Shown: positions 3,046-24,601, numbered from the stretch's first letter. The stretch is 54,048 bases of DNA from Verrucomicrobiia bacterium (GCA_035943555.1 DASZCA010000366.1:1-54048); one strand, 5' to 3'. Numbers and translations: made by a program. Notes: generated by a model from the sequence alone, not told the origin.

Positions 3046-4179
3046 ATGAAACCCTTGTCCGCCCGATTCCTTTCATCTCGTGCTGCCGCGATCGTTTTGG
3101 CGATTTTTTCCATCCTTTGCCGGGCCGATGCGCAATCCCCTTGGCCGGTGGACAAGGCCAACGCTTGGCAAGACCGGCATACTTGGCTTGTCGGTTGCAA
3201 TTTCACGCCCAGCACCGCCATCAACCAGTTGGAAATGTGGCAGGCAGACACCTTTGATCCCGCCACCATCGACCGTGAACTTGGCTGGGCCCAGCAGATC
3301 GGCTTCACCAGCGTCCGCGTCTTCTTGCACAACCTCCTCTGGCAGCAAGATTCCAAAGGTTTTCTCAAGCGGATCGATAAATTTCTCGCCCTCGCCCACC
3401 AGCATCATATCGGCGTGACCTTTGTGATCTTTGATTCCTGCTGGAATCCGTATCCCAAACTGGGCAAGCAACCGGACCCCACGCCCTTCACGCATAACTC
3501 CGGCTGGGTGCAAAGCCCCGGCCAGGAAATTCTAGATCACCCGGAGCGTTATGTGGAATTAAAAGCCTACGTCCAAGGCGTCATCGGCCATTTCAAGAAT
3601 GATTCCCGCATCGACCTGTGGGATGTGTTCAATGAACCGGATAACATGAACGATCCGGCCTACAACAAATTGGAATCGCCTGTGAAACGGGATTTCGCGC
3701 TGATCCTGTTGCAAGATACGTTCGCTTGGGCGCGCGAAATGAACCCGTCTCAACCGCTCACTTCCGGCGTGTGGCTCGGCCCTTGGGCGGATCCGAAAAA
3801 ATTGTCCGCCATGGAACGCGTCCAGTTGCAGAACTCCGACGTCATCTCCTTCCATAACTACGACCGGCTTCCCACCTTGCGAAAATGCGTGGAAAACCTC
3901 CGACGCTATCAGCGCCCCATCGTCTGCACCGAATACATGGCGCGCCCCGTCGGCAGCACCTTCGATCCCAACCTGAAATACCTGCACGACCAGCATGTCG
4001 CCGCCTACAACTGGGGCTTTGTCTCCGGCAAAACCCAGACGATTTACCCGTGGGATTCTTGGACCAAAACATACACCGCTGAACCGCCGCTGTGGTTTCA
4101 CGATATTTTCCGCAACGACGGATCACCTTATGACTCAAAAGAAGTTTCCTACATCAAATCTGTCACCGCTGAAAAATAG
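3046..4179 (+). CDS. Secreted clan GH-A (GH5-like) TIM-barrel glycoside hydrolase
   Basis: 377 aa. Signal peptide MKPLSARFLSSRAAAIVLAIFSILCRADA. NFTPSTAINQLEMWQADTFD...GFTSVRVFLH. Acid/base-type motif LWDVFNEPDN. Later TEYMA (nucleophile-like Glu). Confidence 0.85.
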   Translation: MKPLSARFLSSRAAAIVLAIFSILCRADAQSPWPVDKANAWQDRHTWLVGCNFTPSTAINQLEMWQADTFDPATIDRELGWAQQIGFTSVRVFLHNLLWQQDSKGFLKRIDKFLALAHQHHIGVTFVIFDSCWNPYPKLGKQPDPTPFTHNSGWVQSPGQEILDHPERYVELKAYVQGVIGHFKNDSRIDLWDVFNEPDNMNDPAYNKLESPVKRDFALILLQDTFAWAREMNPSQPLTSGVWLGPWADPKKLSAMERVQLQNSDVISFHNYDRLPTLRKCVENLRRYQRPIVCTEYMARPVGSTFDPNLKYLHDQHVAAYNWGFVSGKTQTIYPWDSWTKTYTAEPPLWFHDIFRNDGSPYDSKEVSYIKSVTAEK

Positions 4180-7100: not shown

Positions 7101-9811
7101 TCACCCATTTTCCAGCGGTGCCGGCGGTGAACCAGCCCGCCGTCATCAGCGCCCGGGTCAGCGATCCGAACGGCATCCAAAATTTGACGTTATATTACCG
7201 GTTGGATCCGTCCACCAGTTACACCACCGTCCTGATGAAGGACGATGGCACCGGCGGGGATGCGGTTCCGAACGATGGCATTTTCAGCGCCACCATCCCC
7301 GGTCAGGCCGCCAACCAGATCGCCGCTTTTTATATCTCCGCCACCGACGGCCTGAATGCCACCAACCGCTTCCCGTCCTTGCGGCCGGCCGACAATGAAC
7401 CGCCCCGCGAATGCGTGGTGTTGTTTGGTGACGGCCAGCCCGGCGGCAGCTTCGGCACCTATCATCTGTGGCTGACGCAAACCAACGCCACCCGCTGGGC
7501 GAACCTCGGCAACCTGAGCAATGAAGGTATCGACTGCACCATGGTCACCGGCAACCGTGTGATCTACAACGCCCAGGCGCACTATGCCGGCAGCCCGGTG
7601 CATCAAGATTACGACATACCCAACGGTTCGCCCTGCACTTACAAATGGATGTTTAATGATGACGACAAATTGCTGGGCGCAACGTCCTTCAACAAAATCC
7701 ATTGGCCCGGCAACACCGCGGATGATCCGACCATTCAACGCGAACAATTCGCCAACACCTTCTTGCGTGCGCTGGGTGTGCCCTGGCTGAACCGCCGCTA
7801 TGTCGCCGTCTTTGTGAACGGCACCCGCCGCGGGCCGCTCATGGAAGATGCGCAGACGCCGGATGGCGACATGGTGAAAGAATATTTTCCTGCCGATACG
7901 GGTGGCTGGCTTTACAAGGTCGCACGGTGGTATGAGTTCACCGCGTTCCCCTCCGGCTACTCCATCGCCGACTCCTTGAAATCAGAAGCGATGCTGCTGC
8001 CTTACAACACCAGCGATGGCACCAAGAAAGTCGCGCGTTACCGCACCACTTTTGAAAATCGTCGCACGCCCACCTCGGTCAGCGATTACTCCAGTCTCTT
8101 TTCCCTGATCGATGCGGCCAGCACCTCGGGCCAGGCAAACTATGTTGCCAACCTGCAAAGCCAGGCGGACATGGAGAATTGGATGCGCGTCTTCGCCGCC
8201 AACCACGCCGCCGGCAACTGGGATTGCTTCGGCTCGGCCAGCGGACAAAATCTTTACATGTACGCCGGCACCCTCGGCACCAAATGGTCGCTCATGATGT
8301 TCGATTTCAACATCGGCCTGGGCATCGACGGCAGTTATTCACCCGGCCAAAGCCTGTTCACGACCTTGTCCGGCGATACCAACATCGCCGCCATGTATGC
8401 CGAGCCCACCTTCCGCCGCATGTACTGGCGCGCGTTGCAGGAACTGTGCACCACCGGCCCGCTCAACCTCGCCAACAGCCTGCCGTTGATCAATGCCAAG
8501 TACGCCATCTTCAAGACGAATGGACTGGCCGTCGAAGACCCGAATCTCAACCTGGTTCCGTGGGTCACCCAGGCCGCCAGCAGCATCGCCGCGCAGGTGG
8601 CTGCCATCAACCCGGCGAATTTCACCACCAACCCGTCGGTGCAAGTTTTCGGTAATCTGGCCTATGTCAGCGGCGTGGCGCCGTTCAATATCGCCACCAT
8701 TTTGATCAACGGCACCCCCTATCCGCTGACTTGGACCACCATCACCAATTGGACCCTTATCGTGCCGGCCTCCGTCATGACTAACCAGCCGTCCTTGGCC
8801 GCGTTGGATCACAACGGCAATGTCATCATCGGCACGCTGGCCAACTCAGCCATCCCTTATAATTTGCCGGGCGCCGTCTATTCGCAAAACTTCGACTCAT
8901 TGCCCAACCCCGGCGCCGTTTCAGTGAATGCCAACAACCCCGTCACCATCAAAAGCAACACCTGCTCGCTGGGCGATCCGTTTGACTTCGCCTTCGCGCC
9001 ATCTGCCACCGGCAACGGCGGCCTCGGCGTGGCAGCGCTGTCTGGCTGGCACGGTTACGGCACCCTGGCCGCCCAATTTGGCGCGACTGCCGGCGATCAG
9101 ACCACTGGCGGCAACATCAGCTTCGGTCTCGCCAACAGCTCCAACCGCGCCCTCGGCCTGCTGGCGACCAGTTCCACCGCCGGCACGGCTTTCGGCGCCA
9201 AGCTCATCAATAACACCGGCGCGAATTTGAATTACATCAACTTGAATTACACCGGCGAAGTTTGGCGGCAGTCGGACACGGCGAAGACCTTGCAATTCTA
9301 TTACTGGGTGGATACCACCGCCACCAATGCCTGGCCCACCGCTTCGACGGCCTACCTCCCCGCGTTGAACGTCAACTTTGCGACCATCAAAGCGGACAAG
9401 GGCGGCGTGGCCGTGGATGGTACCGCTTCCATCAATCGAACCAATCTCGGAGTGCTCAATCAAACCATCACCAACTGGCCGGCTGGCGCCGCCTTGTGGC
9501 TGGTCTGGCAGATGACCGACTCCACCGGCAAGGCCCAAGGCCTCGCGATCGATAACTTTAATTTTTCCGCGACCACCCTGCCGGTCAACTCATTCGGTCC
9601 CATCAACCTTGGGGTGGCTGGCAGAAATATCACCTTGGGCTGGCCGACCGTTTCGGGCGCCACCTATCGGATCCAGTTCAAAAACAATCTCACGGACACC
9701 GTCTGGTCAAACATGGCGCCGGATCAAACGGGAACCGGCAACCCGCTCTCGCTGCCGGTTGATACCGCGACGAATCTCCAGCGCTATTACCGTATTCAGC
9801 GGGTGAATTAA
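4130..9811 (+). CDS. Giant secreted multidomain protein: LamG-like lectin, FN3, three lamin-tail domains (LTD), CBM-like module, Ig-like module, CotH kinase-family domain, an unnamed module and the shared C-terminal module
   Basis: The track ORF is 3995..9811. I prefer ATG 4130 (MTQKKF...RLILALAFLATVHVAFA signal), which overlaps the GH gene by 50 nt. LTD cores: FSEIMYKP..LEFIELYN (~5254), INEILPHS..QFIELYN (~5740), INELMYDP..QYIELYN (~6128). CotH-like region ~7440-8480 (YHLWLTQTNATRW, FNKIHWPGNTADDPT, NWDCFG..QNLYMY). Ends in YYRIQRVN. Confidence 0.9.
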   Translation: MTQKKFPTSNLSPLKNSFPLTGRLTTRLILALAFLATVHVAFAATPLVWLKADAITGITSGSTLQAWVDSSGNGYHATNGVAAQRPTYVTNAMGGKPVVRFNAGSSTSLAFARPVQDDFTIVCIFQGTVGLNSGSLFYQGAGLVNAEMPGVVNDFGSCLFANGSLCAGTGNPDVAVNSAAGYADGRPHVLSFERVRSTGLVSLYVDGAPAGTVTGGTQSLTSPGRLVLGAQQTALNYFTGDIAEVQIFNTALSGTDRQGVETVLYQKYGIPPPAPTGLYLQFQGGQPALTWLSSPGATNYYVKRATSAAGLFTTIATNLATSFTDNTAASTQVYYYVVSAINTVGESANSVVVGTDALLGSHDGAGPSSRTTPIAFSEIMYKPATRTDGKNLEFIELYNSNPWYHDISGYQITCADVTYKFPAGTVIPGASYLVVAAAPADVQSIYGITNVMGPYIGSLKKSETLQLIDEQGAVLLTVPYSNIYPWPVAATSTGHSIVLSNPTYGEGDPRAWDISDITGGSPGTAESFRPGPLRNVVINEILPHSENPLVPQFIELYNHSTQSNDVSGCILTDNITTNKFTVPAGTVIAPAGFVAFTQFGFTLNGAGGTLYLIKPDGSRILDAVQYAGQADGVSYGRWPDGANDFYAFTTNTPATNNSAILVGDIVINELMYDPISENDDDQYIELYNKGTNSVSLAGWQFTAGVTFTFPSITLASNSYLVVSRNTTNLIAKHPALNNANTVGNFTGKLSHNGELVALARPATLYGTNILVEDDEVTYGTGGRWGEWSGGGGSSLELIDPKSNHRLAANWADSDETHKSAWTNITFTGTVDNGANYGSSIGYAQIGVLDIGEALVDNLSLTSGGGANLVFNPDFEGGNLNNWSLQGDHVRSTVEGPGDASNYALHLRAFDHVFDGDNSAEMTLAANSLASGQTATMGFAARWLHGWPEVLMRLNGGWLEATGRLPVPDDLGSPGVTNSRGVVNAGPAIYNVTHFPAVPAVNQPAVISARVSDPNGIQNLTLYYRLDPSTSYTTVLMKDDGTGGDAVPNDGIFSATIPGQAANQIAAFYISATDGLNATNRFPSLRPADNEPPRECVVLFGDGQPGGSFGTYHLWLTQTNATRWANLGNLSNEGIDCTMVTGNRVIYNAQAHYAGSPVHQDYDIPNGSPCTYKWMFNDDDKLLGATSFNKIHWPGNTADDPTIQREQFANTFLRALGVPWLNRRYVAVFVNGTRRGPLMEDAQTPDGDMVKEYFPADTGGWLYKVARWYEFTAFPSGYSIADSLKSEAMLLPYNTSDGTKKVARYRTTFENRRTPTSVSDYSSLFSLIDAASTSGQANYVANLQSQADMENWMRVFAANHAAGNWDCFGSASGQNLYMYAGTLGTKWSLMMFDFNIGLGIDGSYSPGQSLFTTLSGDTNIAAMYAEPTFRRMYWRALQELCTTGPLNLANSLPLINAKYAIFKTNGLAVEDPNLNLVPWVTQAASSIAAQVAAINPANFTTNPSVQVFGNLAYVSGVAPFNIATILINGTPYPLTWTTITNWTLIVPASVMTNQPSLAALDHNGNVIIGTLANSAIPYNLPGAVYSQNFDSLPNPGAVSVNANNPVTIKSNTCSLGDPFDFAFAPSATGNGGLGVAALSGWHGYGTLAAQFGATAGDQTTGGNISFGLANSSNRALGLLATSSTAGTAFGAKLINNTGANLNYINLNYTGEVWRQSDTAKTLQFYYWVDTTATNAWPTASTAYLPALNVNFATIKADKGGVAVDGTASINRTNLGVLNQTITNWPAGAALWLVWQMTDSTGKAQGLAIDNFNFSATTLPVNSFGPINLGVAGRNITLGWPTVSGATYRIQFKNNLTDTVWSNMAPDQTGTGNPLSLPVDTATNLQRYYRIQRVN

Positions 9812-11469: not shown

Positions 11470-14400
11470 ATGGCCGAACCAATCCATGACCGTCCGACGG
11501 ATACCTCCATCTTTCTACGCCAGCAGGCGGTGATGAGCGATGCCATGCGGCGCGACATGTTGCGGGCCAACACGGCGGTGGTGATGGTGCTGGTGGCGGT
11601 GCTGGTGATGGCGTTGATTGCGATGTTCGCCGGGTGGCGGGCGGCGAAAAACTTGCGCCGGGCGGAAACAGCAGAATCCAAGGGCCGGGAACGGTTGCGG
11701 CTGGCTTACACGGAGGAAGCCCGGGCGATCCGCGTCGCTGCCGACGCCGGCGGCCGCATGGCCGCACTGATCGCAATCAGCAACGCGGTGGCGATCCAAC
11801 CTTCGCCCGAACTCCGGACCGAGGCCACCGCCTGCCTCGCCCTCTCGGATCTGGTGCAAGAAGGCGCCATGGTGCCGGCTCCGAAAGATCTGGCGCGGTT
11901 GTTAATGGATCCGCAGATGAAATATTTTGCGACCGGTGACATGGTGGGAAATGTCCAGATCTTCAGCCTGGTGGATGGCAGCCAGGCATTTGAATTTCCG
12001 GCGGCGAGCCTGGGTGTCAGGACGCATCAACCGATCATTGACCTGACCTTCAGCCCGGACAGTTCGATGATCGCAACACGCTTTGACAACGGTGCGGTCG
12101 CGGTCTGGAATCTGCAAACCTGCCGGGCCATTTTCACCAACAGCGTGGAGGCGACGAACACAATGATCGCGCGTCTGCCAACCGGGCTGGTTTTTTCAGC
12201 GGATTCAAAACAATTGATCTTCGGCGACGTCGCAGAGCAGGGCCAGATATCCATTTATGACCTGACAACAGGGCAAAAAATTTCAAGCGCGATCAATGTC
12301 ATCGGCAAGACCTACCGCATGCGTCCGGACCTCAAGCAAGTGGCGGTCATCACAGATAACCGCGTGGAGGTGTTTGATTATCCAGCGGGAACAAAACAAG
12401 GCGCGCTGGCGCATTCGGCCCATGTCGAGATGGTGGAGTGGTCACCGGACGGCCTGCGATTGGCGGTTTCCGGATTTGACGGGGATGTCTTTCTGTGGGA
12501 GCGGGACACCGACGTGCAGCGGCATTTTGCCGGGCACAGCGAACGGAGCATCCGGCTTAATTTTAATTTTGACGGCACGCGGCTTTTTTCCAGTTCGCGT
12601 GATGGCAGAACCCGGCTCTGGGATGTCACCCTCGGCCGACTGATCGCGGTGGGGGAAGGGTTCGGCTGCACCTTCACAGCAGACGGCCAGCGGATCGGTT
12701 ATTGGCGGCCGGTGGCCGGCTTCGGAACGTGGCGGTTGATGCCGAGCAAAGTATTCGCCTTGCATGAATGTGACAAAGCCGAGGGCTCCCTGCTATCCAT
12801 CGACCTTTCACCCAGCGGCCGATGGTGCGTGGTAACGCAGGGCAAGGGTTTTCGTCTCTGGGACCTGATGAACGGTGACCGGGAAACATATGTCCCGGGA
12901 ACATTTTACAATGTGCGGATGGCCATGGATGAAAAATCGCTTTTTGTCTGCAAAACCAACGGCCTGGAAACGTGGCCGCTGACCATGGATGGATCTGGTG
13001 CATTGGAATTATCCCAGGCACAGGCGAAAAAAATTCCGCTGCCGGATGACTTGGGTGCCCGGGCCGTGGCTTTGAGCCAGGATGATCGTTGGGCGGCGGT
13101 GGAACTGATGGACCGGCGGATGGTGCGGATTGACCTGACCGGCCATGCGCCGGTGGTGGAATTAAAAGGCCGGTGGCGTGGTTTGAATTACAAGGGTCCG
13201 GGCAGCGTGACCGGCGCGGGGCGGTTCGTCATCAGCCCGGATGGCAACTGGGTGGTGACCGGATTTGATTTTGAAAGTTATGGCCCCCGCGTCTGGAACG
13301 CGAACACCGGCGAGCTGGCCGCGGAACTGCCGGCGGGAAGCTCATTGGCCAGCTTCACGCAAGACGGTCGCTGGCTCGGGCTTTCGGGGGTCAGCCGGTA
13401 CTCGATCTGGTCGGTGGGCGACTGGCATTTGCAAAAAGAGTTCATCCGCGACGAGGCCACATTGGTGCATGGCGCGCTGGCCTTTATGCCCGATGCCGGA
13501 ACGCTCGCCATTTCACAGACCCGGCAACTCGTGCAATTGCGCGACTGGCAGACGGATGAAAAGATCGGTGACCTGATTCCGCCAGCCGCGCAGAGCATCA
13601 ATACGATCCGGGTGTCGTTGAACGGAGCCATGCTGGTCATGGCGACAGGCAATGACATGGTGGAAGTGTGGCGGCTGAGCCCATTGCGGGAGGCGCTGGC
13701 GGCGATGGGACTTGATTGGAACACTTCGTCTCCGGGTACGGCGGCAGCCATCGCCACGTTGCGTCCGGCCGGAAGCCCGGAAATGATTTTCCTCGCGAGC
13801 CTGGGCGGATTTGCGCTGGTGGCGATCCTGGTTTTGCTGACATTGCGCCGGCACCGGACTGCGATCGAACGGTTTGTGGTGGCGGAAGCCAGCGCGGCGC
13901 AGCGCAACCGCGAGCTGGACCTGGCCAAAGTGGAATTGATGCACAGCCAGAAGATGCAGGCGCTGGGAACGTTGGCCACCGGCATCGCCCACGATTTCAA
14001 CAACCTGCTCTCCGTGGTGCGCATGTCCAACAAGCTGATCGCCCGGCAAGCTCCTGATGATCCGGAAATCCAGGAACACGTGACGGGCATCGAACAGGCG
14101 GTGTTGCAGGGAAAAAGCGTGGTGAGCTCGGTCTTGGGCTATGCGCGGCCGGGAAAAGACACCGGGGAATTTGCCGATGTCAGCGCCGTGGTGAACGAGG
14201 TGGTGGCGTTGTTAAGCCGCGAGTTTTTGAGCGGAATCGAACTGACCTTGGAACTGGATCGCAATGCGCCCCGGGCCCGGGTCGCCCGCGGGCCGCTGGA
14301 GCAGGTGCTGTTGAACCTGCTGGTGAACGCTTCCGAAGCGATGCAAGGCGAAGGACATTTGAAAATCGTTTTGCATGCGTGCGCGGCCTTGCCGCCGGGT

Positions 14401-14706
14401 GCCTATATTCTGCGACCGTCTCCGGCGGGGGAATATGTGGAACTGAACGTGGTGGATACCGGCCCGGGCATTGCGCCGGAAATCCGTGACCGGCTGTTCG
14501 AGCCTTTTTTTACAACCAAGCAGAAAGCTGCCAAGGCCGGAACGGGCCTGGGTCTTTCACTGGTCTATTCCATCGCGCAACAGACCGGCATCGGGTTGAG
14601 CTTGGAAAGCGAACCTGGCAAGGGCGCCCGGTTCACGCTGTTCATTCCGGCCGGCGGCACGGCTGTGCGCCAAATGCACAGTGCCAAAATCAACGACCCG
14701 GCTTAA
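11470..14706 (+). CDS. Sensor histidine kinase with a ~720-aa extracytoplasmic WD40/beta-propeller region between two TM helices
   Basis: 1078 aa. TM1 VVMVLVAVLVMALIAMFAGW. WD-like blades: VQIFSLVDG, VAVWNLQT, VFLWERDT, TRLWDVTLG, FRLWDLMNG, VEVWRL. TM2 MIFLASLGGFALVAILVLLTL (~13783-13845). HisKA MQALGTLATGIAHDFNNLL. N box LLNLLVNASEAM. G1 VVDTGPGI. G2 GTGLGLSLV. Confidence 0.9.
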   Translation: MAEPIHDRPTDTSIFLRQQAVMSDAMRRDMLRANTAVVMVLVAVLVMALIAMFAGWRAAKNLRRAETAESKGRERLRLAYTEEARAIRVAADAGGRMAALIAISNAVAIQPSPELRTEATACLALSDLVQEGAMVPAPKDLARLLMDPQMKYFATGDMVGNVQIFSLVDGSQAFEFPAASLGVRTHQPIIDLTFSPDSSMIATRFDNGAVAVWNLQTCRAIFTNSVEATNTMIARLPTGLVFSADSKQLIFGDVAEQGQISIYDLTTGQKISSAINVIGKTYRMRPDLKQVAVITDNRVEVFDYPAGTKQGALAHSAHVEMVEWSPDGLRLAVSGFDGDVFLWERDTDVQRHFAGHSERSIRLNFNFDGTRLFSSSRDGRTRLWDVTLGRLIAVGEGFGCTFTADGQRIGYWRPVAGFGTWRLMPSKVFALHECDKAEGSLLSIDLSPSGRWCVVTQGKGFRLWDLMNGDRETYVPGTFYNVRMAMDEKSLFVCKTNGLETWPLTMDGSGALELSQAQAKKIPLPDDLGARAVALSQDDRWAAVELMDRRMVRIDLTGHAPVVELKGRWRGLNYKGPGSVTGAGRFVISPDGNWVVTGFDFESYGPRVWNANTGELAAELPAGSSLASFTQDGRWLGLSGVSRYSIWSVGDWHLQKEFIRDEATLVHGALAFMPDAGTLAISQTRQLVQLRDWQTDEKIGDLIPPAAQSINTIRVSLNGAMLVMATGNDMVEVWRLSPLREALAAMGLDWNTSSPGTAAAIATLRPAGSPEMIFLASLGGFALVAILVLLTLRRHRTAIERFVVAEASAAQRNRELDLAKVELMHSQKMQALGTLATGIAHDFNNLLSVVRMSNKLIARQAPDDPEIQEHVTGIEQAVLQGKSVVSSVLGYARPGKDTGEFADVSAVVNEVVALLSREFLSGIELTLELDRNAPRARVARGPLEQVLLNLLVNASEAMQGEGHLKIVLHACAALPPGAYILRPSPAGEYVELNVVDTGPGIAPEIRDRLFEPFFTTKQKAAKAGTGLGLSLVYSIAQQTGIGLSLESEPGKGARFTLFIPAGGTAVRQMHSAKINDPA

Positions 14707-14717
14707 AATCCGGATGG

Positions 14718-15383
14718 ATGACTGAAACGATGGAAATACTGGCTTCAATATTGATCGTGGAAGACGACCCGCGGCAATTGAGGCTGTATGCCCAGGCTTT
14801 GCGTGCGTACCGGCTGACGTGCGTTGCCACCGGCACCGCCGCGCTGAAAGCGATGAGTGAAATGAAACCGGACCTCATCATCCTGGATAATGTGCTGGAT
14901 GCCGGCGAGCGCGGGGTGGATTTTTTGCCCAAGCTCAAAAGCGCGGCGGCCCATGTGCCCATCATCCTCATTTCCGGCACGTTAAAAATTCATGAGCAGA
15001 TGGCGGCATTGCAAGGTCCGCGCTCGGCCCATTTCACATTGGACAAGCCGATCGACCTGGATGAACTGGATCGCACGGTGGAGATCGCGCTGACGGAGTG
15101 CGGTTTCGGGGAGACGGTCGCGGCGCTGCAATCGCTGGAACGGGCGGAAAAGATCGAGGCATCCGAACCGGACCGGCGCTTCACGGAGCGCCTGGCACGG
15201 CAATACGAAATGATCAAGCGTCTGCGCGGCGCCGCGGCACGACCCAATATTTCTGAATTGTCGCGCGAGTTCAATGTCGCCCGGAAGACCATCATCCGCG
15301 ACCTGCAGGACTTGATCAAACGCGGCCAGTTGCCCGGGGAGATCTATCCGGAGTGGAACCAGGAAAACACCGGCGAGGAATAG
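14718..15383 (+). CDS. Response regulator: receiver domain plus a C-terminal DeoR/winged-helix-like HTH
   Basis: 221 aa, 11 nt after the kinase gene. ILIVEDD, phospho-acceptor context DLIILDNVL, conserved Lys in LDKP. C-terminal HTH: NISELSREFNVARKTIIRDLQDLIKRGQL. Confidence 0.88.
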   Translation: MTETMEILASILIVEDDPRQLRLYAQALRAYRLTCVATGTAALKAMSEMKPDLIILDNVLDAGERGVDFLPKLKSAAAHVPIILISGTLKIHEQMAALQGPRSAHFTLDKPIDLDELDRTVEIALTECGFGETVAALQSLERAEKIEASEPDRRFTERLARQYEMIKRLRGAAARPNISELSREFNVARKTIIRDLQDLIKRGQLPGEIYPEWNQENTGEE

Positions 15384-15464
15384 CCGGCGCCAGGATTTCT
15401 TTGGCGCCCCCTGTGCGTCACTCGCACAGTATTGCGAGGGACTTTACCGTGGTACAAGAGGGGC

Positions 15465-18400
15465 ATGGAAAATCACAATTCCGTTCCAGCCCGGGTTATT
15501 TTATTCTTCACCTGCTGCTTTGTCTGGCTGGCTTTTCCGGTGCGCGGCAACACGCTGACCTGGACGGGCACCGGCGCCAATGCGTATTGGAACAACAGCG
15601 CCAACTGGGGCGGCTTCGGCATTCCAGCCAACGGCGATACGTTGATTTTCACCGGCTTCACCAACTATGTGAACACAAACAACATCGCCAACCTGACGTT
15701 GAATTCGATCAAGTTTTATGACTTTTCCAGCAGTTTCGACCTGCGCGGCAACGCGTTCACCCTGACGAACAGCATCATCGACACAAACTTCGTCGGCAGC
15801 GCGATCATCGAAAACAACATCACACTGGCAACTGCGGATGTGCTGCTGCGGGTCGACAGCATTTTTTCCACCCTGACCTTGGAAGGTCAACTCACAGGCT
15901 CCGTGGGCGTGAACAAGACCGGGACGGGACGGTTGCTCTACCAGTATGGCGGGAACAACACGTATACCGGCACCACGCTGGTGGGCAACGGCTATCTGGA
16001 ACTGAACGTGAGCGGGAGCAGCGCCTTTGGCGGGCCGCTGGTGATCGGCGACGGTTCGGGCAGCAACAGCATAGTGCAGTTGCTACAGAGCGTGGAAATC
16101 TCGACCGCCGCAGACATCAGCCTGAACAAGGATGGCTTGCTGGATCTGAACGGGTTTTACCAGACCATCGGCACCAACGTGCTTTTCAACGGCACCGCCA
16201 GCGCTATTTTTAGCGGGAGCGGCGGGCTGTCCTTGTTGCCCAATTGCACGATCACTTTGGCCACCGGCGTGGTGGGCAGCATCACTGGCAACCTTAACAT
16301 CGGGTCCGGCACCTTGAACATTGTGGGCGATAACGGCCCGCTATTCAGCCAGGCCATTTTTTCCGTGTCTGCGAATGTGAGCGGTTCGGCCAATATCACG
16401 CAAAACGGATGGGTCGACAGTCAATGGTCGGGCACCAATACTTACTCGGCCATTTATACCGCCAACGGCCCCAGTTTCATCGTGTTGGCCAATTCCCAGG
16501 CATTGGGCAATCCGACCAACACCATGACGCTCAACGGGCGGTCCGCGGTGCAGCTAAGCGGCAACATCCACGTCACCAACCAGTGGCTGACCATCAACAG
16601 CACCAATGTCGCCTACGACTATGCCCTGTCGGTTGAATCCACCTCGACCAATTCCTGGCAGGCCAATTTTTTGCTCGGCACAAATGTGATGGTGGATGTC
16701 GCGACGAACTGTTCTTTGATACTCAACATCAACAGTTCCATCACCGGCCCGGGCGGCATCATCAAATCCGATAAGGGCGGCCTAACGCTGGCGGGAGGAA
16801 TCAATGTGAGCAGCTACATTGGGGATACGACGGTCCTGGGCGGAACGTTATTCTTGGATTCCGTCAATGTCATCCGTTATGGAAGGCTGACGGTGGGCTC
16901 CGGCTCCGGCCAACCCAAGGCAACTGCCGTACGATATCTGGCGAATTCGTGCATTTATGGCGGGCCCGGTGGATCCACCGTTTTGCTTAATGAAGACGGC
17001 TGGCTGGATCTGAACGGATTTTTTGATGATGTGGGGCCGATCGCGATGGACGGGGCGACCATCACCACGGGGGCGGGAATGTTATCGCTGTTTCCGCCGC
17101 TGACAGCCGTCGCCGGCGGCCATGGCAGCGCGTTCGTCTACGGAAACATGCAATTGACGGGCAACAGCGCGCTAGTGGCGTCCAACGCGTTGGTGGTGTA
17201 CGCCCAGGTCTCCAGTTCCGGCAACTACACGCTCACCAAGAGCGGCCCCAGTTTTCTGTTTTTGTTGGCGAGCAATTCTTATGCGGGCACAAATATCGTC
17301 CAGCAAGGCTGGCTCAGCCTGGGCAACGGCTCGGCTTTGGGCAGCGCGAACAACAGCACGATCGTCAGCAATGGCGCGACCCTGACCATGAACGGAAATT
17401 TCACGGTGACGCAGGCATTGCTCACCTTGAACGGGCCGGGCGAGCCGAGCTGGGGTTCTTTGGATTCGGAAACCATCGGCGGCACGAACGTCTGGATGGG
17501 GCCGATCGTTTTGAATGCGGACAGCAATTTTTCGCCGGACCAGGAGGGCACGACCCTCCGGCTGATCAGCCAGATCAGCGGGCCCGGCGGGTTCACACAA
17601 TTCAATGACGCGGGCGATACCAACAGCGTACTCTCGCTGGAAGGCAATGCGGTCAATTCGTATGGCGGGACCACCATCGTCAATGGCGGCACCTTGATGT
17701 TGAGCAAAGCTTCCGGGCAAGCGGTGCCGGGCAACTTGGTGATCAATAATCAAAGCGTGGCCCGGCTGGGGTACTACACGCAAAACGCCCAGACAGCCGA
17801 TGTGCTGGTGAACAGCGGCGGCCTGTTCGACCTGTCCATCTACTATACCTATATCGATACGCTGCACGGTACCGGCCAGGTAAACTTTGGCACCCAAGGA
17901 TGGATCGAAGTGGGCTTTAACAACGGTAGCAGCACGTTTGCCGGGGTGATGACCGGCACGGGCTATACATCCGGCGGTTATACGGTGGCCAAGCGCGGTT
18001 CTGGTACGTTCACGTTGACAGGCAATAACACCTTCACCGCCGGGGCGACCCATGTTTTCTCGCCGGGCAAACTCATCATCAACGGCAGCCAGGCGCAGGT
18101 GCCGGCCATCGTGGATGCGGGCGCGACATTGGGCGGCACGGGCACAGTCGGCGCGATCACGGCGAACGGCGTGATCTCCCCCGGCACCAACGGACCGGGC
18201 GTTCTTGGCAGCGGCACGGTGACCTACGGCAGCACAGGCAGCCTGGCCGTGATGCTCAATGGCACAACGGTCGGAAGTGGCTACAGCGAGTTGAACGTGG
18301 CCGGGACGGTCAACTTGGCCAGCGCCACGTTATCGGTGATTCCGGGAACGCCGGGGGCGATCAACAATCAGTATACAATTCTCAATAATGATCTTTTCGA

Positions 18401-18761
18401 TGCGGTCAGCGGCACCTTTGCCGGACTGGCGGAAGGCGCCACGGTGGTGGCGAACAATGGCGCGCTGTACACGATCAGTTATCATGGCGGCTCGGGCAAT
18501 GACGTGGTGTTGACACAGATTGCGCTGCCATCGTTGCCGAAATTCACGGGCATCCAGAAATTGATGGGCGGTGCCTTACAGATCAACGGCATCGGCATCA
18601 GCAATCTGACTTACACGGTGCAGGCCAACACGAATCTGGCCACGACGAACTGGGTCGCCATCGGCACGACCACGCCGCCCGCGAACACCAACACCTTGCA
18701 GTTCACGGATTTCAACGCCATCAGTTTTCCGCAGCGGTTCTATCGTTTCTATCTGCCTTGA
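15465..18761 (+). CDS. Secreted autotransporter-associated beta-strand-repeat (passenger-like beta-helix) protein. It has no beta-barrel translocator and ends in the shared C-terminal module.
   Basis: The track ORF starts at TTG 15432. ATG 15465 gives MENHNSVPARVILFFTCCFVWLAFPVRG. TWTGTGANAYWNNSANWGG. Repeats of the type GGNNTYTGTTLVGNGYLELN, NSYAGTNIVQQGWLSLGNGSALGS, NSYGGTTIVNGGTLMLSK. Passenger-end-like YTISYHGGSGNDVVLT. C-terminus ...YTVQANTNLATTNWVAIG...QRFYRFYLP*. Confidence 0.88.
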   Translation: MENHNSVPARVILFFTCCFVWLAFPVRGNTLTWTGTGANAYWNNSANWGGFGIPANGDTLIFTGFTNYVNTNNIANLTLNSIKFYDFSSSFDLRGNAFTLTNSIIDTNFVGSAIIENNITLATADVLLRVDSIFSTLTLEGQLTGSVGVNKTGTGRLLYQYGGNNTYTGTTLVGNGYLELNVSGSSAFGGPLVIGDGSGSNSIVQLLQSVEISTAADISLNKDGLLDLNGFYQTIGTNVLFNGTASAIFSGSGGLSLLPNCTITLATGVVGSITGNLNIGSGTLNIVGDNGPLFSQAIFSVSANVSGSANITQNGWVDSQWSGTNTYSAIYTANGPSFIVLANSQALGNPTNTMTLNGRSAVQLSGNIHVTNQWLTINSTNVAYDYALSVESTSTNSWQANFLLGTNVMVDVATNCSLILNINSSITGPGGIIKSDKGGLTLAGGINVSSYIGDTTVLGGTLFLDSVNVIRYGRLTVGSGSGQPKATAVRYLANSCIYGGPGGSTVLLNEDGWLDLNGFFDDVGPIAMDGATITTGAGMLSLFPPLTAVAGGHGSAFVYGNMQLTGNSALVASNALVVYAQVSSSGNYTLTKSGPSFLFLLASNSYAGTNIVQQGWLSLGNGSALGSANNSTIVSNGATLTMNGNFTVTQALLTLNGPGEPSWGSLDSETIGGTNVWMGPIVLNADSNFSPDQEGTTLRLISQISGPGGFTQFNDAGDTNSVLSLEGNAVNSYGGTTIVNGGTLMLSKASGQAVPGNLVINNQSVARLGYYTQNAQTADVLVNSGGLFDLSIYYTYIDTLHGTGQVNFGTQGWIEVGFNNGSSTFAGVMTGTGYTSGGYTVAKRGSGTFTLTGNNTFTAGATHVFSPGKLIINGSQAQVPAIVDAGATLGGTGTVGAITANGVISPGTNGPGVLGSGTVTYGSTGSLAVMLNGTTVGSGYSELNVAGTVNLASATLSVIPGTPGAINNQYTILNNDLFDAVSGTFAGLAEGATVVANNGALYTISYHGGSGNDVVLTQIALPSLPKFTGIQKLMGGALQINGIGISNLTYTVQANTNLATTNWVAIGTTTPPANTNTLQFTDFNAISFPQRFYRFYLP

Positions 18762-18808
18762 AGAATTTAAAAACCTCGCACGCCGGACATCAAAAAAAAC
18801 ATACACCC

Positions 18809-21604
18809 ATGAAACTCAAAAAAACAATCATCTTGGCTGCGTCCTTTCTTGGCGCAGCGCTGACGTGCCCGGCCCAAGGCACGGCTTTCACCTATCAAGG
18901 CCGTTTAAACAACGGCGGCGCGCTGGCGAACGGCAGCTATGACATGGCGTTCACGCTCTATGCCACGAACGTGACGGGCAGCGCGATCGCCGGGCCGGTA
19001 ACGAACACGGCGGTGGCGGTGAGCAACGGCCTGTTCACGACCACGGTGGATCTGGGCGGTGCTTTTAACGGCACGAGCAACTGGTTGCAGATCGCCGTGA
19101 GCACGAACAGTGCGAATGTGTTCAGCACACTCACGCCCCGCCAGCGGCTGACGCCGGTGCCTTACGCGCTGTATTCCACCATGGCAGGCTATGCCACCAC
19201 CGCCGGCCTGGCCGCGAGTGTGCCGCCGGACAGCATCACGGCGGCCATGCTGGCGCCGGGCGCGGCCTCGGTGCTGGGCACGCCGAATGGAACGGCAACC
19301 AATGCGGTGACCGTCAATAACAACGGGCTGGTGGGCATCGGCACCGGATCCGCCACGCCGGCGGCGGGTTTGCAGATCAACTCCGGGGGCACTGAAGCCA
19401 TCTTGCCGGTGTTGTTTGAAGTGCAAAATGGCATCGGGGGATACACAAATATCAGTTCCGCAATCATGCCGGCCGTAAAAAATAATCTGCTGGCGGTCGC
19501 CGGCGGCGGCGGCATCACGTTGGTGAGCCTCACCAATCCGGCCGCACCGCAGTTGCTGGCACAATCGACGGGCAACGGGATTTTCACCAACCTCAACACC
19601 CCGACCGGCCTGGCCTGGGCCGGATCAAATCTGATCGTCGCCGCCCAATCATCCAGCGCGCTGACCATTTTCTCGTGCACGAATCCGGCCAATCCCGTGG
19701 CCATCGCGCAAGAACTGAACGGCGTAGGCGGCTGGAACTATTTGAGCGCGGCCTCGGGCGTGGCCGTTTCGGGCAATTTGCTGGCCGTCGCATCCGCGGG
19801 AAGCAGTGCGGTCACGCTGGGTGACGTTTCGACCCCGGCCGCGCCGGTGTTAAAAAGCACCATGGTGAACGGCACCTTTGGCTTCACCAACTTGGGCGGC
19901 TCATTTTCCGTGGCCCTGTCCGGCAACGTGCTGGCGATCGGCGCTTTTTATTCCAACGCGGTGACGTTGGTGAATGTCGCAGATCCGACGAATCCGCAGA
20001 AGCTGGCCGAGCTCCGCAACGGCGTGGGCGGGTTCACCAACCTGTCCGGGGTCTATGCGGTGGCGCTGTCCGGCAACTTGCTGGCCGTGGCGGGGGTCTA
20101 TAGCAGTGCGGTGACGCTGGTGGATGTGAGCAATCCGTCAAATCCGGTCAAGCTGTCGGAAATACGGGACGGTGTGGGCGGCTATTCCTTGCTTGAAGCA
20201 TTATCGGTGGCCATTTCCGGCAACCGGTTGATCATCGGCAGCCTGGGCGCCAACACGGTTACCTTGGTAGACATCAGCAATCCGGCCAACCCGGTCTTGA
20301 TGGCCACGGCCAGAAATGGCCTGAACGGCGCCAACTATCTGGTTTCACCGGAAGGTTTGGCGTTCGCCGGCACCAATTTTGTGTCCTGCGCCAGCTCCGG
20401 GGCTTTCACCATTTTTGGTGTCGCGACACAATCCGTGGGACTGGCCAGCGCGGGCTGGGTGGGAATCGGCACCACGCAACCGCAGGCGGCCTTGGACGTG
20501 GAGGGAGATGTCGTGGTGGAAAACGCGGCGCATTTCACGGCCAGCGCTCCTCAAGTGGCCATAGGTTTAAATGCCATCGCCGGCGGGTACCAATCCGCCG
20601 CGCTGGGTGATAACGCGGTGGCCAGCGGCACCAATTCACTGGCCTTGGGCGGCAACGCGCTGGCGAGCGGTACTTATTCAACGGCCCTGGGTTTCTATGC
20701 TGTCGCCTCTGGATTTGATTCCGACGCGTTTGGCACCTACGCCCAAGCCCTTGGCCAGCAATCCGCCGCAGTGGGCCATGCGACATCTGCCAGCGGCGAT
20801 TATTCGGTGGCCGTGGGCAACACGGCGTACGCACAGGCCGCCTCCGCCGTGGCCGTGGGCAGCGGCGTAACCGCCTCCGCCCTAGATTCCATGGCTTTCG
20901 GCGTCAACGCGAATGCGTTGGCAGAAAATGCCGCCGCGCTGGGTTATTTCGCGGCCGCAAGCAACACCAATGCCATGGCGCTGGGATGCCAGACATCGGC
21001 CAACGGCCAAAATGCAACGGCATTGGGATATTTTACAAAGGCGAACGGGGATAATTCCCTCGCGGCCGGATATTTCGCCAACGCCACCAACCGGGGTTCG
21101 ATTATTTTGGCCGATGGCACCGCCTTGGTGGCCTTCAATTCCACAAACAACAACGAGTTCGCCGTGCGCGCCACCGGGGGCGTGCGCCTGGTGACGGCGG
21201 TGGACGGCGGCGGCAATCCCACCGCCGGCGTAAAACTTTTCCCCGGCGGCACGGCTTGGGCCACCATTTCGGATCAGAACGCCAAGAAAAATTTCGTGCC
21301 GGTCAACTGCGCGGAAGTCCTGGACAAGCTCACGGCGGTCCCGATCCAGAAATGGAATTACAAATGGGAAGCCGATTCCAGCACGCCAAACATCGGTCCC
21401 ATGGCGCAGGCGTTCAAGGCCGCCTTCTATCCCGGCCGCGATGATAAATCCATCACCACGCTTGAATTTGACGGTGTGGAACTGGCGGCCATCGAGGGAC
21501 TGAATCAAAAACTGGAAGCGCAAAAAACCGAAAATGCGGCGTTAAAAGAACGCCTGGAGAAGCTGGAAGAATTCATCAACAAACGGACCGGAGGCGCCAA
21601 ATGA
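18809..21604 (+). CDS. Phage-tail-fibre-like secreted protein: conserved N-terminal fibre module, LVIVD-repeat beta-propeller, YadA-head (Hep_Hag)-like repeats, C-terminal peptidase S74 intramolecular-chaperone domain
   Basis: ATG 18809 gives MKLKKTIILAASFLGAALTCPAQG. TAFTYQGRLNNGGALANGSYDMAFTLY. LVIVD-like blades such as GNLLAVAGVYSSAVTLVDVSNPSNPVKL (~19480-20420). 7/14-residue repeats ALGDNAVASGTNSLALGGNALASGTYSTALG (~20560-21110). S74-like domain from SDQNAKKNF (21269), with a coiled-coil tail ENAALKERLEKLEEFI. Confidence 0.85.
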   Translation: MKLKKTIILAASFLGAALTCPAQGTAFTYQGRLNNGGALANGSYDMAFTLYATNVTGSAIAGPVTNTAVAVSNGLFTTTVDLGGAFNGTSNWLQIAVSTNSANVFSTLTPRQRLTPVPYALYSTMAGYATTAGLAASVPPDSITAAMLAPGAASVLGTPNGTATNAVTVNNNGLVGIGTGSATPAAGLQINSGGTEAILPVLFEVQNGIGGYTNISSAIMPAVKNNLLAVAGGGGITLVSLTNPAAPQLLAQSTGNGIFTNLNTPTGLAWAGSNLIVAAQSSSALTIFSCTNPANPVAIAQELNGVGGWNYLSAASGVAVSGNLLAVASAGSSAVTLGDVSTPAAPVLKSTMVNGTFGFTNLGGSFSVALSGNVLAIGAFYSNAVTLVNVADPTNPQKLAELRNGVGGFTNLSGVYAVALSGNLLAVAGVYSSAVTLVDVSNPSNPVKLSEIRDGVGGYSLLEALSVAISGNRLIIGSLGANTVTLVDISNPANPVLMATARNGLNGANYLVSPEGLAFAGTNFVSCASSGAFTIFGVATQSVGLASAGWVGIGTTQPQAALDVEGDVVVENAAHFTASAPQVAIGLNAIAGGYQSAALGDNAVASGTNSLALGGNALASGTYSTALGFYAVASGFDSDAFGTYAQALGQQSAAVGHATSASGDYSVAVGNTAYAQAASAVAVGSGVTASALDSMAFGVNANALAENAAALGYFAAASNTNAMALGCQTSANGQNATALGYFTKANGDNSLAAGYFANATNRGSIILADGTALVAFNSTNNNEFAVRATGGVRLVTAVDGGGNPTAGVKLFPGGTAWATISDQNAKKNFVPVNCAEVLDKLTAVPIQKWNYKWEADSSTPNIGPMAQAFKAAFYPGRDDKSITTLEFDGVELAAIEGLNQKLEAQKTENAALKERLEKLEEFINKRTGGAK

Positions 21605-22050
21605 AAAACCGCGCGTTCCTCGTTCTTATTGTCCTTCACTTCGTTTTCGGCTTCAGCTTGCGAAGCGTGGCGCAAAGCCATTCCATCGACTGGTACAAGG
21701 TCGCCGGAGGCGGCGGGACAAGCACCAACGGGCTGTATTCGCTGAGCGGGACCATCGGCCAACCGGATGCCGGCGGGGCGATGAGCGGCGGGAACTTTTC
21801 GGTGACGGGCGGTTTTTGGGCGCTCATCAATGTGGTGCAGACGCCGGGGGCGCCGCCTTTGTACATCAGCCACAGCGGCAACGTGGTAACGGTGTATTGG
21901 CAGAATCTTGGCAGCTGGACATTGCAACAAAATGGCAGCCTCACGGTTCCGCCGGGCTGGAACAACAGCAGCGGCGTCAACCTGATCGGTGGCACCAACT
22001 ATCTGGCGATCACCAATCCGGCGGGCACGCAGTTTTTTCGGTTGAAATAA
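21601..22050 (+). CDS. Small secreted protein (149 aa): Gly-rich GTIGQPDAG...GGFW motif plus the shared C-terminal module
   Basis: ATGA overlap with the tail-fibre-like gene (21601-21604). Signal MKNRAFLVLIVLHFVFGFSLRSVAQ. GGGGTSTNGLYSLSGTIGQPDAGGAMSGGNFSVTGGFWAL. Ends in TQFFRLK*. Confidence 0.7.
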   Translation: MKNRAFLVLIVLHFVFGFSLRSVAQSHSIDWYKVAGGGGTSTNGLYSLSGTIGQPDAGGAMSGGNFSVTGGFWALINVVQTPGAPPLYISHSGNVVTVYWQNLGSWTLQQNGSLTVPPGWNNSSGVNLIGGTNYLAITNPAGTQFFRLK

Positions 22051-22063
22051 CCAGCCAAACAGA

Positions 22064-24601
22064 ATGACTTCCTTCAAAAAGGAGCCGGGTTTTTGGCAAA
22101 ATTCAAGCGGTGACGACGCGCATGATGTACACTGCGCGGTGCAAATCCGGCGTTTGAAAAAAAGCCTGTCTCTCGGTGTTCTTTTTCTGCTGCCCATGCT
22201 GCTGCTGGCCGGGCCAACGAATGCCATTCTTTTTGTCACGCAACTTCCGGTGCCGGAAGATTTCACGACCGTCGGGTCGGTTTTCGGGAATCAATTGCCG
22301 GATCTGGATTCGTGCGGACGGGGTGGCGATCTTTATATCCGTTATCCGGACGGTTCGGTGAAAAATCTTACGCTGGCGGCGGGCTACGGCCAGACGGGTT
22401 TGCAGACGACGAACGCCATCGCCGTGCGGCAACCATCCGTGTTTTGGGATGGCACGAGGGCGGTTTTCAGCATGGTCATCGGCGCGCCGGAGCATCAATT
22501 CGATTATTCCTCCAACCCGGTGTGGCAATTGTATGAAGTCACCAACTTCACCGATCCCAATGCGCTGCCGGTGATCACGAAGGTGCCGAACCAGCCGACG
22601 AATTTTAACAATATCTCGCCTATCTACGGTTCGGATGACCGGATCATCTTTGCCAGCGACCGGCCGCGCAGCGGGCAGATGAACCTGTATCCGCAACTGG
22701 ATGAATATGAGGAGGCGCCGACGGTCACCGGGTTGTGGAGCTTGCAGCCGACGAACGGTGACCTGTTCCTGATCAATCATTCACCGAGCGGCTCATTCTC
22801 GCCGCAGATCGACAGCGCGGGGCGCATCGTGTTCTCGCGCTGGGACCATTTACAACGCGACCAGCAGGCAGACACGGACTGGTATGAGGGCAGTGATGTT
22901 TATGGCACTTTTAATTGGAGCGATGAATCCGCCAATTCCGTGATGACGACGAACCAGACCGAGGTGTTTCCCGAGCCGCGCAACGTCCGCACGGATCTGC
23001 TGGCGGGCACGGGGTTGTCTGGCGAAGATTTTAACCAGTTTTTCCCGTGGGCGATCGACCAGGACGGGACGGACGAGGAAACGGTGAACCACATCGGCCG
23101 GCACGAAATCGGCGGCAGCTATCTCAACGCGGCCTACACAAACGATCCGAACATCCAGGACCGGTATGATTTCGCCATCAATTACAATACGAACACGGTG
23201 GAGAATTTTCTGATGATCCACGAAGACCCGCACACCCCAGGATTGTATTATGGCATCGACGCGCCGGAGTTCGGCACGCACAGCGGCGGGCAGCTTGTTT
23301 CGCTGACGGGCGCGACGAACATCAACGCGTTCTACATGCGCATCAATTATCTTACGCCGCGCTCGACGCATACCTATGCCGATTCGTACACGAACATTCC
23401 GCCCGATCACACCGGATTTTATCGTAATCCGCTGATGACTTCGGACGGCTACATGATCGCCGCGCACACGTCTTATGCTCTATATGCGGAGAATACCGGC
23501 ACAGACACCAACCCGGCCACACCGTATCATTTTCGGATCAAAATTTTGAATTTCACCAACGGCTTTTACGTGCCGGGCCAGCCGCTGACACCGGGATTCA
23601 TCAAGACGGTTTCGTATTGGACCCCGGATGAGCTGATCGAAGAAACCAACCAGTTATGGGAGTTGGATCCGGTGGAAGTGATTGCGCGCCCGCGACCCGT
23701 ACCATTCACGGTGCCGGTGCCGCAGCCGGAGCTGGATGCATTCGCCACGGCCAAGGTGGATGTGCAGCAATTTCAAAATTATCTCCGCACGCATCAGCTT
23801 GCGCTGCTCGTCAGCCGGGATGTGACCACGCGCGATGAAGCCGACCAGCAACAGCCGTTCAACCTGCAAGTCGCGGGCACGAGCCATTTGACGACCGGGG
23901 CGGGCGGAAAAATTTATGACATCGCGTGGCAGCAATTTTTCCAGGCCGACCAGTTGCGCAGTGAAAACTTTGGCGATCCGGGCAATCCGCGCGAAGGGCG
24001 GCGCGTGCTGGCGCAATATCTGCCCGATCCGGCGGTGGACAATCCGCCAGCGGCGGCGCTATCCAGCGTGCGCATCGGCGCGGACGGCTCGACGGCGGCG
24101 CTGGTGCCGGCGCGGCGGGCGATGACATGGCAGCTTACTGACACGAACAACGTGGGCGTGGTGCGCGAGCGTTATTGGCTAAGTTTTGCGCCGGGTGAAA
24201 TCCGTTCATGCACCAGCTGTCACGGCATCAACGTCGCGACGCAAGCCGGGCATCCCGCGCCGACGAACATGCCGCTCGCACTGGTAAGCCTGTTGAATTA
24301 TTGGAAGACGGCCACGAAGATCCAGCCCGACGTGGTGACAAATCTGGGAACGAAATATTTTCAAATCACCTTTCAACGCCATTCGGTGGAACCGGGGGTG
24401 ACGTATCATGTGCAATCTTCGACGAACATGGTGACGTGGTCTGACATCGCGACGTATGCGGGTTCGAATACCGTGATCAACGCGGGGGCGATGGATGTTT
24501 CCGGCAGCGGATCGACAAATGGATGTGTGACAGTACGCGAAACGACGAAGATTAATGGGGCGACGGCGAAATTTTTAAGGGTGAGCGTGACGCAGCCGTA
24601 G
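22064..24601 (+). CDS. Secreted propeller-like (TolB/PD40-like by motif) protein with a single CxxCH motif and the shared C-terminal module
   Basis: 845 aa from ATG 22064. Alternative GTG 22139 gives a clean signal (M)QIRRLKKSLSLGVLFLLPMLLLAGPTNA. PD40-like strands RIIFASDRP and RIVFSRWDH. SCTSCHGINVATQAGHPAP. C-terminus VTYHVQSSTNMVTWSDI...AKFLRVSVTQP*. Confidence 0.75.
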   Translation: MTSFKKEPGFWQNSSGDDAHDVHCAVQIRRLKKSLSLGVLFLLPMLLLAGPTNAILFVTQLPVPEDFTTVGSVFGNQLPDLDSCGRGGDLYIRYPDGSVKNLTLAAGYGQTGLQTTNAIAVRQPSVFWDGTRAVFSMVIGAPEHQFDYSSNPVWQLYEVTNFTDPNALPVITKVPNQPTNFNNISPIYGSDDRIIFASDRPRSGQMNLYPQLDEYEEAPTVTGLWSLQPTNGDLFLINHSPSGSFSPQIDSAGRIVFSRWDHLQRDQQADTDWYEGSDVYGTFNWSDESANSVMTTNQTEVFPEPRNVRTDLLAGTGLSGEDFNQFFPWAIDQDGTDEETVNHIGRHEIGGSYLNAAYTNDPNIQDRYDFAINYNTNTVENFLMIHEDPHTPGLYYGIDAPEFGTHSGGQLVSLTGATNINAFYMRINYLTPRSTHTYADSYTNIPPDHTGFYRNPLMTSDGYMIAAHTSYALYAENTGTDTNPATPYHFRIKILNFTNGFYVPGQPLTPGFIKTVSYWTPDELIEETNQLWELDPVEVIARPRPVPFTVPVPQPELDAFATAKVDVQQFQNYLRTHQLALLVSRDVTTRDEADQQQPFNLQVAGTSHLTTGAGGKIYDIAWQQFFQADQLRSENFGDPGNPREGRRVLAQYLPDPAVDNPPAAALSSVRIGADGSTAALVPARRAMTWQLTDTNNVGVVRERYWLSFAPGEIRSCTSCHGINVATQAGHPAPTNMPLALVSLLNYWKTATKIQPDVVTNLGTKYFQITFQRHSVEPGVTYHVQSSTNMVTWSDIATYAGSNTVINAGAMDVSGSGSTNGCVTVRETTKINGATAKFLRVSVTQP

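Follow-up and report, generated by a model that had tools for sequence, protein, structure and literature searches.

Secreted proteins are usually held on the bacterial surface or on a substrate by C-terminal binding repeats that occur in variable copy number. GW, choline-binding and S-layer homology (SLH)-type anchors, carbohydrate-binding modules (CBMs) and PPC domains (PF04151) are carried in one to several C-terminal copies by secreted enzymes, where they act in retention, in substrate binding or as a secretion aid. A C-terminal element of another kind is the type A C-terminal domain (CTD) of type IX secretion systems (T9SS), a seven-strand (3 + 4) immunoglobulin (Ig)-like sandwich whose two functional motifs are a conserved loop and the final strand, which bears a basic residue (PMC11285876). 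As far as the accounts of its distribution in two sources go, T9SS is described as confined to Bacteroidota or the Fibrobacterota-Chlorobiota-Bacteroidota (FCB) group (PMC11285876; PMC10515386). Here, a C-terminal module is examined that recurs on secreted proteins encoded by a contig of a Verrucomicrobiia bacterium (GCA_035943555.1, DASZCA010000366.1), the window being the whole analyzed stretch of 54,048 nt with about 45 genes. The module represents a real and very large domain family without a curated model, apparently restricted to one lineage. As an extracellular domain family it is new, though of a kind already familiar, and no description of it was found in the literature searched.

In a preliminary description of the window, seven proteins of otherwise unrelated architecture had been proposed to end in one and the same module closed by an aromatic-aromatic-Arg motif. 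Upon translation, all seven open reading frames (ORFs) and their quoted C-terminal ends were confirmed, and signal-peptide-like N-termini are apparent by inspection in all of them. Leave-one-out hidden Markov models made from the seven tails yielded too small a profile, which connected no copies but those of the beta-helix, propeller and FN3 proteins, and a database-derived profile was used instead. This main profile, built from 359 domains of database proteins and none from the window, detects five window tails with E-values between 4e-5 and 1.6e-27, namely those of FN3 paralogs b and a, the beta-helix protein, the propeller protein and the CotH giant. The tails of the GH16 protein and of a small secreted protein were missed, also when the search was iterated to convergence across related loci totalling 1.3 Mb. 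The GH16 tail is a shorter variant, which is also present in P0084 and in 1319-aa proteins of two related loci (L057 and L058), and an alignment of this short variant (GH16, P0084, L057, L058) matches the main family in hhalign with a probability of 89.6% (E 1.9e-6). For the C-terminal half of the small protein, or for its family, no support was obtained by hhalign against the module; its likeness to the module is confined to the succession of motifs (..VYW.., W.LQQN..L, ..FFRLK) and to the prediction of a beta-sandwich. Its AlphaFold2 model displays strands in residues 74-148, with weak FN3/CBM-like Foldseek matches, and shows no more than a generic sandwich. Judged by these sequence comparisons, five window copies are firm family members, the GH16 copy is a probable one, and membership of the small protein is unproven.

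The CotH giant (3995-9811, plus strand, 1938 aa) ends in ...QRYYRIQRVN directly before the stop codon and carries its module at 9533-9808 (E 4e-5; profile envelope at residues 1853-1944 of the stop-to-stop frame). It comprises Laminin_G_3, three lamin-tail domains, a CotH kinase domain, a short choice-of-anchor X motif and then the module; an apparent homologue, P0202 (1944 aa), is matched by the profile in two stretches. In the PATR-repeat beta-helix protein (15432-18761, plus strand, 1109 aa; end ...QRFYRFYLP), the module is located at 18471-18758 (E 6.7e-17). The HZS_alpha-type propeller protein (22064-24601, plus strand, 845 aa; end ...AKFLRVSVTQP) carries a variant at 24275-24598 with an inserted hairpin, because of which the profile match (envelope 24275-24520) is confined to the first half, with E-values of 4.5e-8 over the entire ORF and 2.5e-7 over the matched part alone. 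Tails of the form ...FLRVSVT.P are found in its orthologues P0027, P0032, P0044 and others. The two FN3 paralogs consist of a signal peptide, an FN3 domain and the module. Paralog a (45774-46319, minus strand, 181 aa; FN3 domain at residues 34-99 by Pfam) carries the latter at 45777-46043 (E 6e-23; end ...RRYYRAYYLSPLG), while in paralog b (46546-47100, minus strand, 184 aa; end ...QRYYRTYYLSP) it lies at 46549-46818 (E 1.6e-27); both are extended to the last codon from profile envelopes at 45786-46043 and 46552-46818, respectively. Paralog b belongs to the same protein family as 62 carriers from 60 related loci. The shortened, probable variant of the GH16 protein (39686-42058, plus strand, 790 aa; end ...QQFFRLHN) occupies 41879-42055, being linked by hhalign only, and the motif-bearing C-terminal half of the small secreted protein (21601-22050, plus strand, 149 aa; end ...TQFFRLK) occupies 21856-22047. 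According to Pfam, the other domains of these carriers (CotH/LTD, PATR beta-helix, HZS_alpha propeller, GH16, FN3) are mutually unrelated as had been claimed, except for the two FN3 paralogs, which are related to each other. Outside the window, GH9, DUF11 and LVIVD/TIG proteins were found as further carrier types. The motif [FY][FYL]R lies within the last 12 residues of 7 of the approximately 45 window genes, whereas its background frequency in a stretch of 12 residues is 0.9% (P of about 2e-7, binomial).

Based on structure prediction, the module should fold on its own into an Ig/FN3-like beta-sandwich of five to six strands, as a previously unmodelled domain of about 65 residues. The AlphaFold2 model of the 68-residue beta-helix tail (18555-18758) has a predicted local distance difference test score (pLDDT) of 92.7 and contains five main beta-strands and one short one (residues 2-4, 7-13, 20-25, 34-39, 47-52 and 62-66). 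In this model, the Q.STNL..W element forms the loop leading from strand B into strand C, and RFYR forms the last strand. The signature of the module reads G..Y.[VI]Q.S[TD][ND]L..W ... F.D ... RFYR, followed by 4-6 residues, and the polar residues Q, S/T, N and two Arg are conserved across the family and on unrelated cargo. A reading of the STNL motif as an N- or O-glycosylation sequon was rejected, as no consistent sequon was found. No Pfam or NCBIfam model matches the module consistently, be it in the window tails, in 47 aligned modules at E <= 10 or in the tandem-array proteins, and a sequence search of the PDB with the module profile returned nothing significant. Likewise, Foldseek with the module model gave no match with E <= 1e-3; the best E-value was 0.26 and the template-modelling (TM) score normalised to the query reached up to 0.59, a generic sandwich resemblance. 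Matches to FN3, Ig and CBM21/48 domains were weak, with TM scores normalised to the query of at most about 0.58 among the matches listed, all at E > 0.1. The best Foldseek match was the C-terminal domain of human Nir2 (probability 0.99, TM normalised to the query 0.58, E 0.26), and one aligned module showed a weak Pfam match to the PITM1-3 beta-sandwich (E 0.028), both below significance. Judging by its name, we take PITM1-3 to be the Nir2/PITPNM family; Foldseek and Pfam would then both seem to point at one eukaryotic domain, neither of them significantly.

The size of the family was estimated by an exhaustive HMMER search over 1.84 billion representative proteins, each standing for a cluster at 50% identity. 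The profile matched 45,517 clusters at E <= 1e-3 and 8,874 at E <= 1e-10. Named protein matches are nearly all from Verrucomicrobiota, mostly Limisphaerales, with a partial protein from a 'Dongiaceae' metagenome-assembled genome (MAG) as the one exception. A scan of species-representative genomes, which used a narrow subfamily pattern and thus under-samples the diversity, yielded 271 confirmed sites, of which 80 were kept, nearly all of them in Verrucomicrobiae, Limisphaerales or Pedosphaera MAGs of soil and peat. A few scan records under other taxa look like mis-binned contigs. Given this distribution, the window itself is assigned to a Limisphaerales-like Verrucomicrobium. A third, word-indexed search for taxonomic breadth returned 7 matches among 92 candidates. 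A family of this size with neither a curated model nor a solved structure leaves an annotation gap in genomes that are abundant in soil and peat. With a single profile, the C-terminal end could be annotated in a sizeable share of the secreted proteins of these hosts, which in the window amounts to six or seven of the roughly 45 genes.

A strictly C-terminal position had been claimed for the module, and what stands of this claim is a strong bias. The related-loci sample comprised 80 loci (20 kb each, 1.3 Mb) together with the window, and a module was counted as C-terminal when the last copy ended no more than 15 residues from the stop. This applies to 100 of the 106 carrier ORFs (94%), 62 of which belong to one protein family dominating the 80 loci, compared with 2 of 63 FN3 domains (3%) in the same DNA. 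Recounted by family with the module masked, 23 of 28 carrier families are C-terminal, or 24 of 28 when the propeller protein of the window is included, which has to be added by hand because its profile envelope stops short. Among the top database representatives, whose list of 150 is biased towards multi-copy proteins, the array reaches the C-terminus in 133 of 149. Nearly all of 93 short matches stop 1-7 residues past FYR, typically as RFYRxxxxP directly before the stop codon, and 103 of 126 terminal copies have 4-6 residues after the Arg and no hydrophobic segment. An aromatic-aromatic-Arg motif was observed at 135 C-termini where 32 were expected, and 92 of these 135 are profile matches. 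The proposed co-occurrence with signal peptides was likewise borne out, as these were predicted for 64% of the carriers and 18% of control ORFs in a crude test that misses non-ATG starts. Nevertheless, other domains can follow the module, such as CBM96 after the array in P0102 and LamG-like, FGE-like or another recurrent domain in L039, L017, L069, P0107, P0169, P0179 and P0198; several further apparently non-terminal cases look like frameshifted gene calls. In P0107, P0169, P0179 and P0198, the 90 C-terminal residues behind the module arrays form a different recurrent domain (...LFSTGG...F.V......G.HPFYA......G...RT...), for which a Pfam scan of P0107, the only one of the four scanned, gave no match.

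The claim is further qualified by the frequent repetition of the module within one protein. In the top 150 representatives, it occurs as tandem arrays of 2-8 copies, and many small proteins consist of a signal peptide, FN3 and one or more modules, and nothing else. Copies within an array display a median identity of 48%, compared with 32% between proteins; since array copies have diverged, the arrays appear to be maintained rather than being products of recent slippage. The FYR motif is present in 73% of the internal and 82% of the terminal copies. As internal copies carry it too, the motif belongs to the last strand of the folded beta-sandwich and not to a signal at the C-terminus, contrary to its initial reading as a motif of sorting-tag type.

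Compared with the systems described so far, the module resembles the T9SS CTD in being a small Ig-like beta-sandwich that is located C-terminally on diverse Sec-exported cargo and combines a conserved loop with a basic last strand (PMC11285876). However, the T9SS CTD has seven strands (3 + 4), whereas the module has five to six in about 65 residues, and the T9SS CTD occurs in single copy and always last, whereas the module is found in tandem arrays, internally and sometimes before other domains. Moreover, its host phylum is Verrucomicrobiota, for which no T9SS has been described. With the threshold relaxed to E <= 10, neither TIGR04183 nor PF18962 (Por_Secre_tail) matched any of the seven window tails or the 47 aligned modules, and the top 50 PDB matches of the module model in Foldseek include no T9SS CTD structure. 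Membership in the T9SS CTD family was rejected, as none of the three defining features tested (profile match, seven-strand fold, single last copy) was found. With PEP-CTERM/exosortase, LPXTG, GlyGly-CTERM and MYXO-CTERM signals, the module shares the C-terminal location on many unrelated secreted proteins of one lineage, but it is a folded 65-residue domain in place of their architecture of signature motif, transmembrane helix and basic cluster. PEP-CTERM membership was rejected, too, since only 4-6 residues, often with a final Pro and without any hydrophobic stretch, follow FYR and since local PEP-CTERM tails differ. Such genuine tails (..VPEPS, helix, RR/K) occur in L057 (14160-15068, minus strand), L058 (14214-15125, minus strand), L015, L056, L062 and L067, in the first two immediately downstream of the short-variant carrier, and genes for the exosortases EpsH and EpsI are present in L086 (16425-18218). 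As PEP-CTERM proteins and exosortase thus exist in related loci as separate proteins, the module is no stand-in for PEP-CTERM in genomes without it. The absence of a matching named signal, as noted in the preliminary description, is thereby confirmed for all Pfam, NCBIfam and T9SS CTD models tried.

With FN3 (PF00041) and bacterial Ig-like (Big_x) domains, the module shares the extracellular location, the capacity for tandem repetition and, by prediction, the general fold class, and it often directly follows FN3. Yet no FN3, Ig or Big profile of Pfam matches the module itself, and hhalign assigns a probability of 3% to a relation with the co-resident FN3 domains; by sequence, the module is thus no ordinary FN3/Ig domain. 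It also has fewer strands than FN3 and is C-terminal in 94% of cases compared with 3%. Among the Pfam families of C-terminal binding repeats, none (GW, choline-binding, SLH, CBM, PPC) was matched in scans of the window tails and the 47 aligned modules, and the module differs further in that its host is a diderm Verrucomicrobium. An autotransporter (type V secretion) reading of the beta-helix protein was rejected, since this protein ends in the 68-residue sandwich and no barrel domain was found in it with Pfam or NCBIfam, in agreement with its earlier description as a passenger-like protein without a translocator barrel.

In terms of function, the module is tentatively regarded as most likely a terminal, non-covalent binding or retention domain of a new family. 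This reading is preferred because of the tandem arrays, the same motifs in internal copies, the tolerated following domains and the small proteins made up of FN3 and modules alone. Forming the last unit, single or tandem, of Sec-exported multidomain proteins that end at a domain boundary, the module would hold a variety of enzymes and adhesin-like proteins on one shared ligand, for which the envelope glycan or matrix of the host itself or possibly an external polymer would be candidates. Avidity would be tuned through the number of copies in an array, as it is by C-terminal binding repeats in other bacteria, and the module would be no cleaved linear sorting peptide. Of the two roles suggested initially, sorting and anchoring, anchoring or binding is our working hypothesis, as it fits the tandem arrays better. 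Several points weigh against such a binding role. No carbohydrate- or envelope-binding domain was matched significantly in Foldseek (CBM21/CBM48-like matches had E > 1), the position statistics are limited by the one dominating protein family and by the multi-copy bias of the listed representatives, a purely structural role would explain the tandem arrays equally well, and the combination of loop and basic last strand is also typical of T9SS CTDs (PMC11285876). For the understanding of Limisphaerales, the C-terminal bias on unrelated cargo offers a handle on the display or retention of glycoside hydrolases, CotH-type proteins and adhesin-like beta-helices. Should the module act by binding, its ligand would tell what the hosts stick their exoenzymes to.

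Possible, if somewhat unlikely, is a role of the module as generic structural Ig-like spacer or folding cap, whose C-terminal bias would stem from duplication or appending of domains at the 3' end of genes. The beads-on-a-string repetition with short linkers, the higher identity within proteins (48%) than between them (32%), indicative of internal duplication, and the merely generic Ig/FN3 resemblance are all consistent with it. A spacer, however, has nothing to connect at the extreme end of a protein, and FN3 in the same genomes lacks such a bias (2 of 63). The strong conservation of the polar residues over 45,517 clusters and unrelated cargo also speaks against a spacer and suggests a common interaction surface.

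Alternatively, the terminal copy could serve as an outer-membrane export or attachment signal that is recognized by a dedicated Verrucomicrobial machinery in the manner of a T9SS CTD, and maybe then removed or covalently linked; we consider this unlikely. We know of no established route by which large Sec-exported proteins of Verrucomicrobiota get across or onto the outer membrane, and by analogy the module might be the functional T9SS CTD counterpart that tags cargo for a so far undescribed pathway of outer-membrane export or surface attachment in this phylum, which is equally doubtful. The extreme C-terminal position (94% of ORFs, 133 of 149 representatives, about 24 of 28 families, compared with 3% for FN3), the tightly constrained tail length and the functionally diverse, Sec-exported cargo, including a PATR beta-helix without an autotransporter-barrel match in Pfam/NCBIfam, all argue for such a signal, as does the parallel of the conserved loop and the last strand with an invariant basic residue to the two T9SS CTD motifs (PMC11285876). 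The common tandem arrays, the internal copies with identical motifs and the domains that can come after the module weigh against it. Additionally, T9SS CTDs were found neither by model match nor in the top 50 Foldseek matches, and T9SS itself is described as limited to Bacteroidota/FCB in the sources cited, to the extent that they cover its distribution (PMC11285876; PMC10515386). A sortase, peptidase or outer-membrane component had been envisaged as partner, but clustering of the neighbours across the 80 loci and Pfam analysis of the recurrent ones revealed no such partner and none related to secretion. Recurrent neighbours of carriers are housekeeping genes in synteny (MnmA, GltB, PheS/PheT) and sensor kinases only. 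Were the module an export or anchoring signal, a new sorting system would be defined, and given the size of the family, its machinery could be found by phylogenetic profiling. Finally, a chance or compositional likeness of short motifs, arisen separately in secreted proteins rich in Thr, Asn and Ser, might account for the small protein and, less so, GH16, which HMMER profiles do not detect. This reading is very improbable overall and, for five or six of the seven tails, refuted by the independent profile matches in five window proteins (E-values between 4e-5 and 1.6e-27), the confident fold prediction and the excess of the C-terminal motif (135 observed, 32 expected, 92 of them profile matches), leaving only the small protein to which it could apply.

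The preference for a binding or retention domain aside, the surroundings of the carriers display some features of their own. In the window (11470-24601, plus strand), a WD40-sensor histidine kinase and a response regulator lie upstream of, and on the same strand as, a run of large secreted proteins, with stop/start overlaps at 18758/18761 and 21601/21604. In L081 (1058-18398), a CHASE kinase and a GerE regulator are divergently transcribed beside large secreted proteins. In both cases, a two-component system thus adjoins a run of three to six large secreted proteins, several of them with a terminal module, and the arrangement looks like a regulated surface-protein cassette. Within the window run, the protein encoded at 18758-21604 (plus strand) contains LVIVD, YadA_head repeats and a C-terminal Peptidase_S74 intramolecular-chaperone domain and is phage-tail-fibre-like; a PHROGs scan of the window four-gene block matched no PHROG of known function. 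The mature N-termini of this protein and of two proteins of L081 (3550-6771 and 7628-9985) have the motif QGTAFTYQGRLN.GG..A.G.YD in common.

The 149-aa small protein belongs to a very large and tightly conserved family of its own, with at least 7968 matches at about 65% identity and lengths of 145-155 aa. The N-terminal half of this family is characterized by an invariant GGGGTS..G.Y..SGTIGQPDA..SGG.Y.VTGGFW, and the AlphaFold2 model has a pLDDT below 50 in residues 24-71. In four of four contexts, the gene directly follows that of a fibre-like protein (window 21601-22050, plus strand; L081 10001-10471; L085 10001-10597; L086 10001-10462). The fibre-like partner carries Peptidase_S74 and/or YadA_head in three of these contexts and DUF7452 in the fourth, and the stop and start codons of the two genes overlap in the window and in L085.

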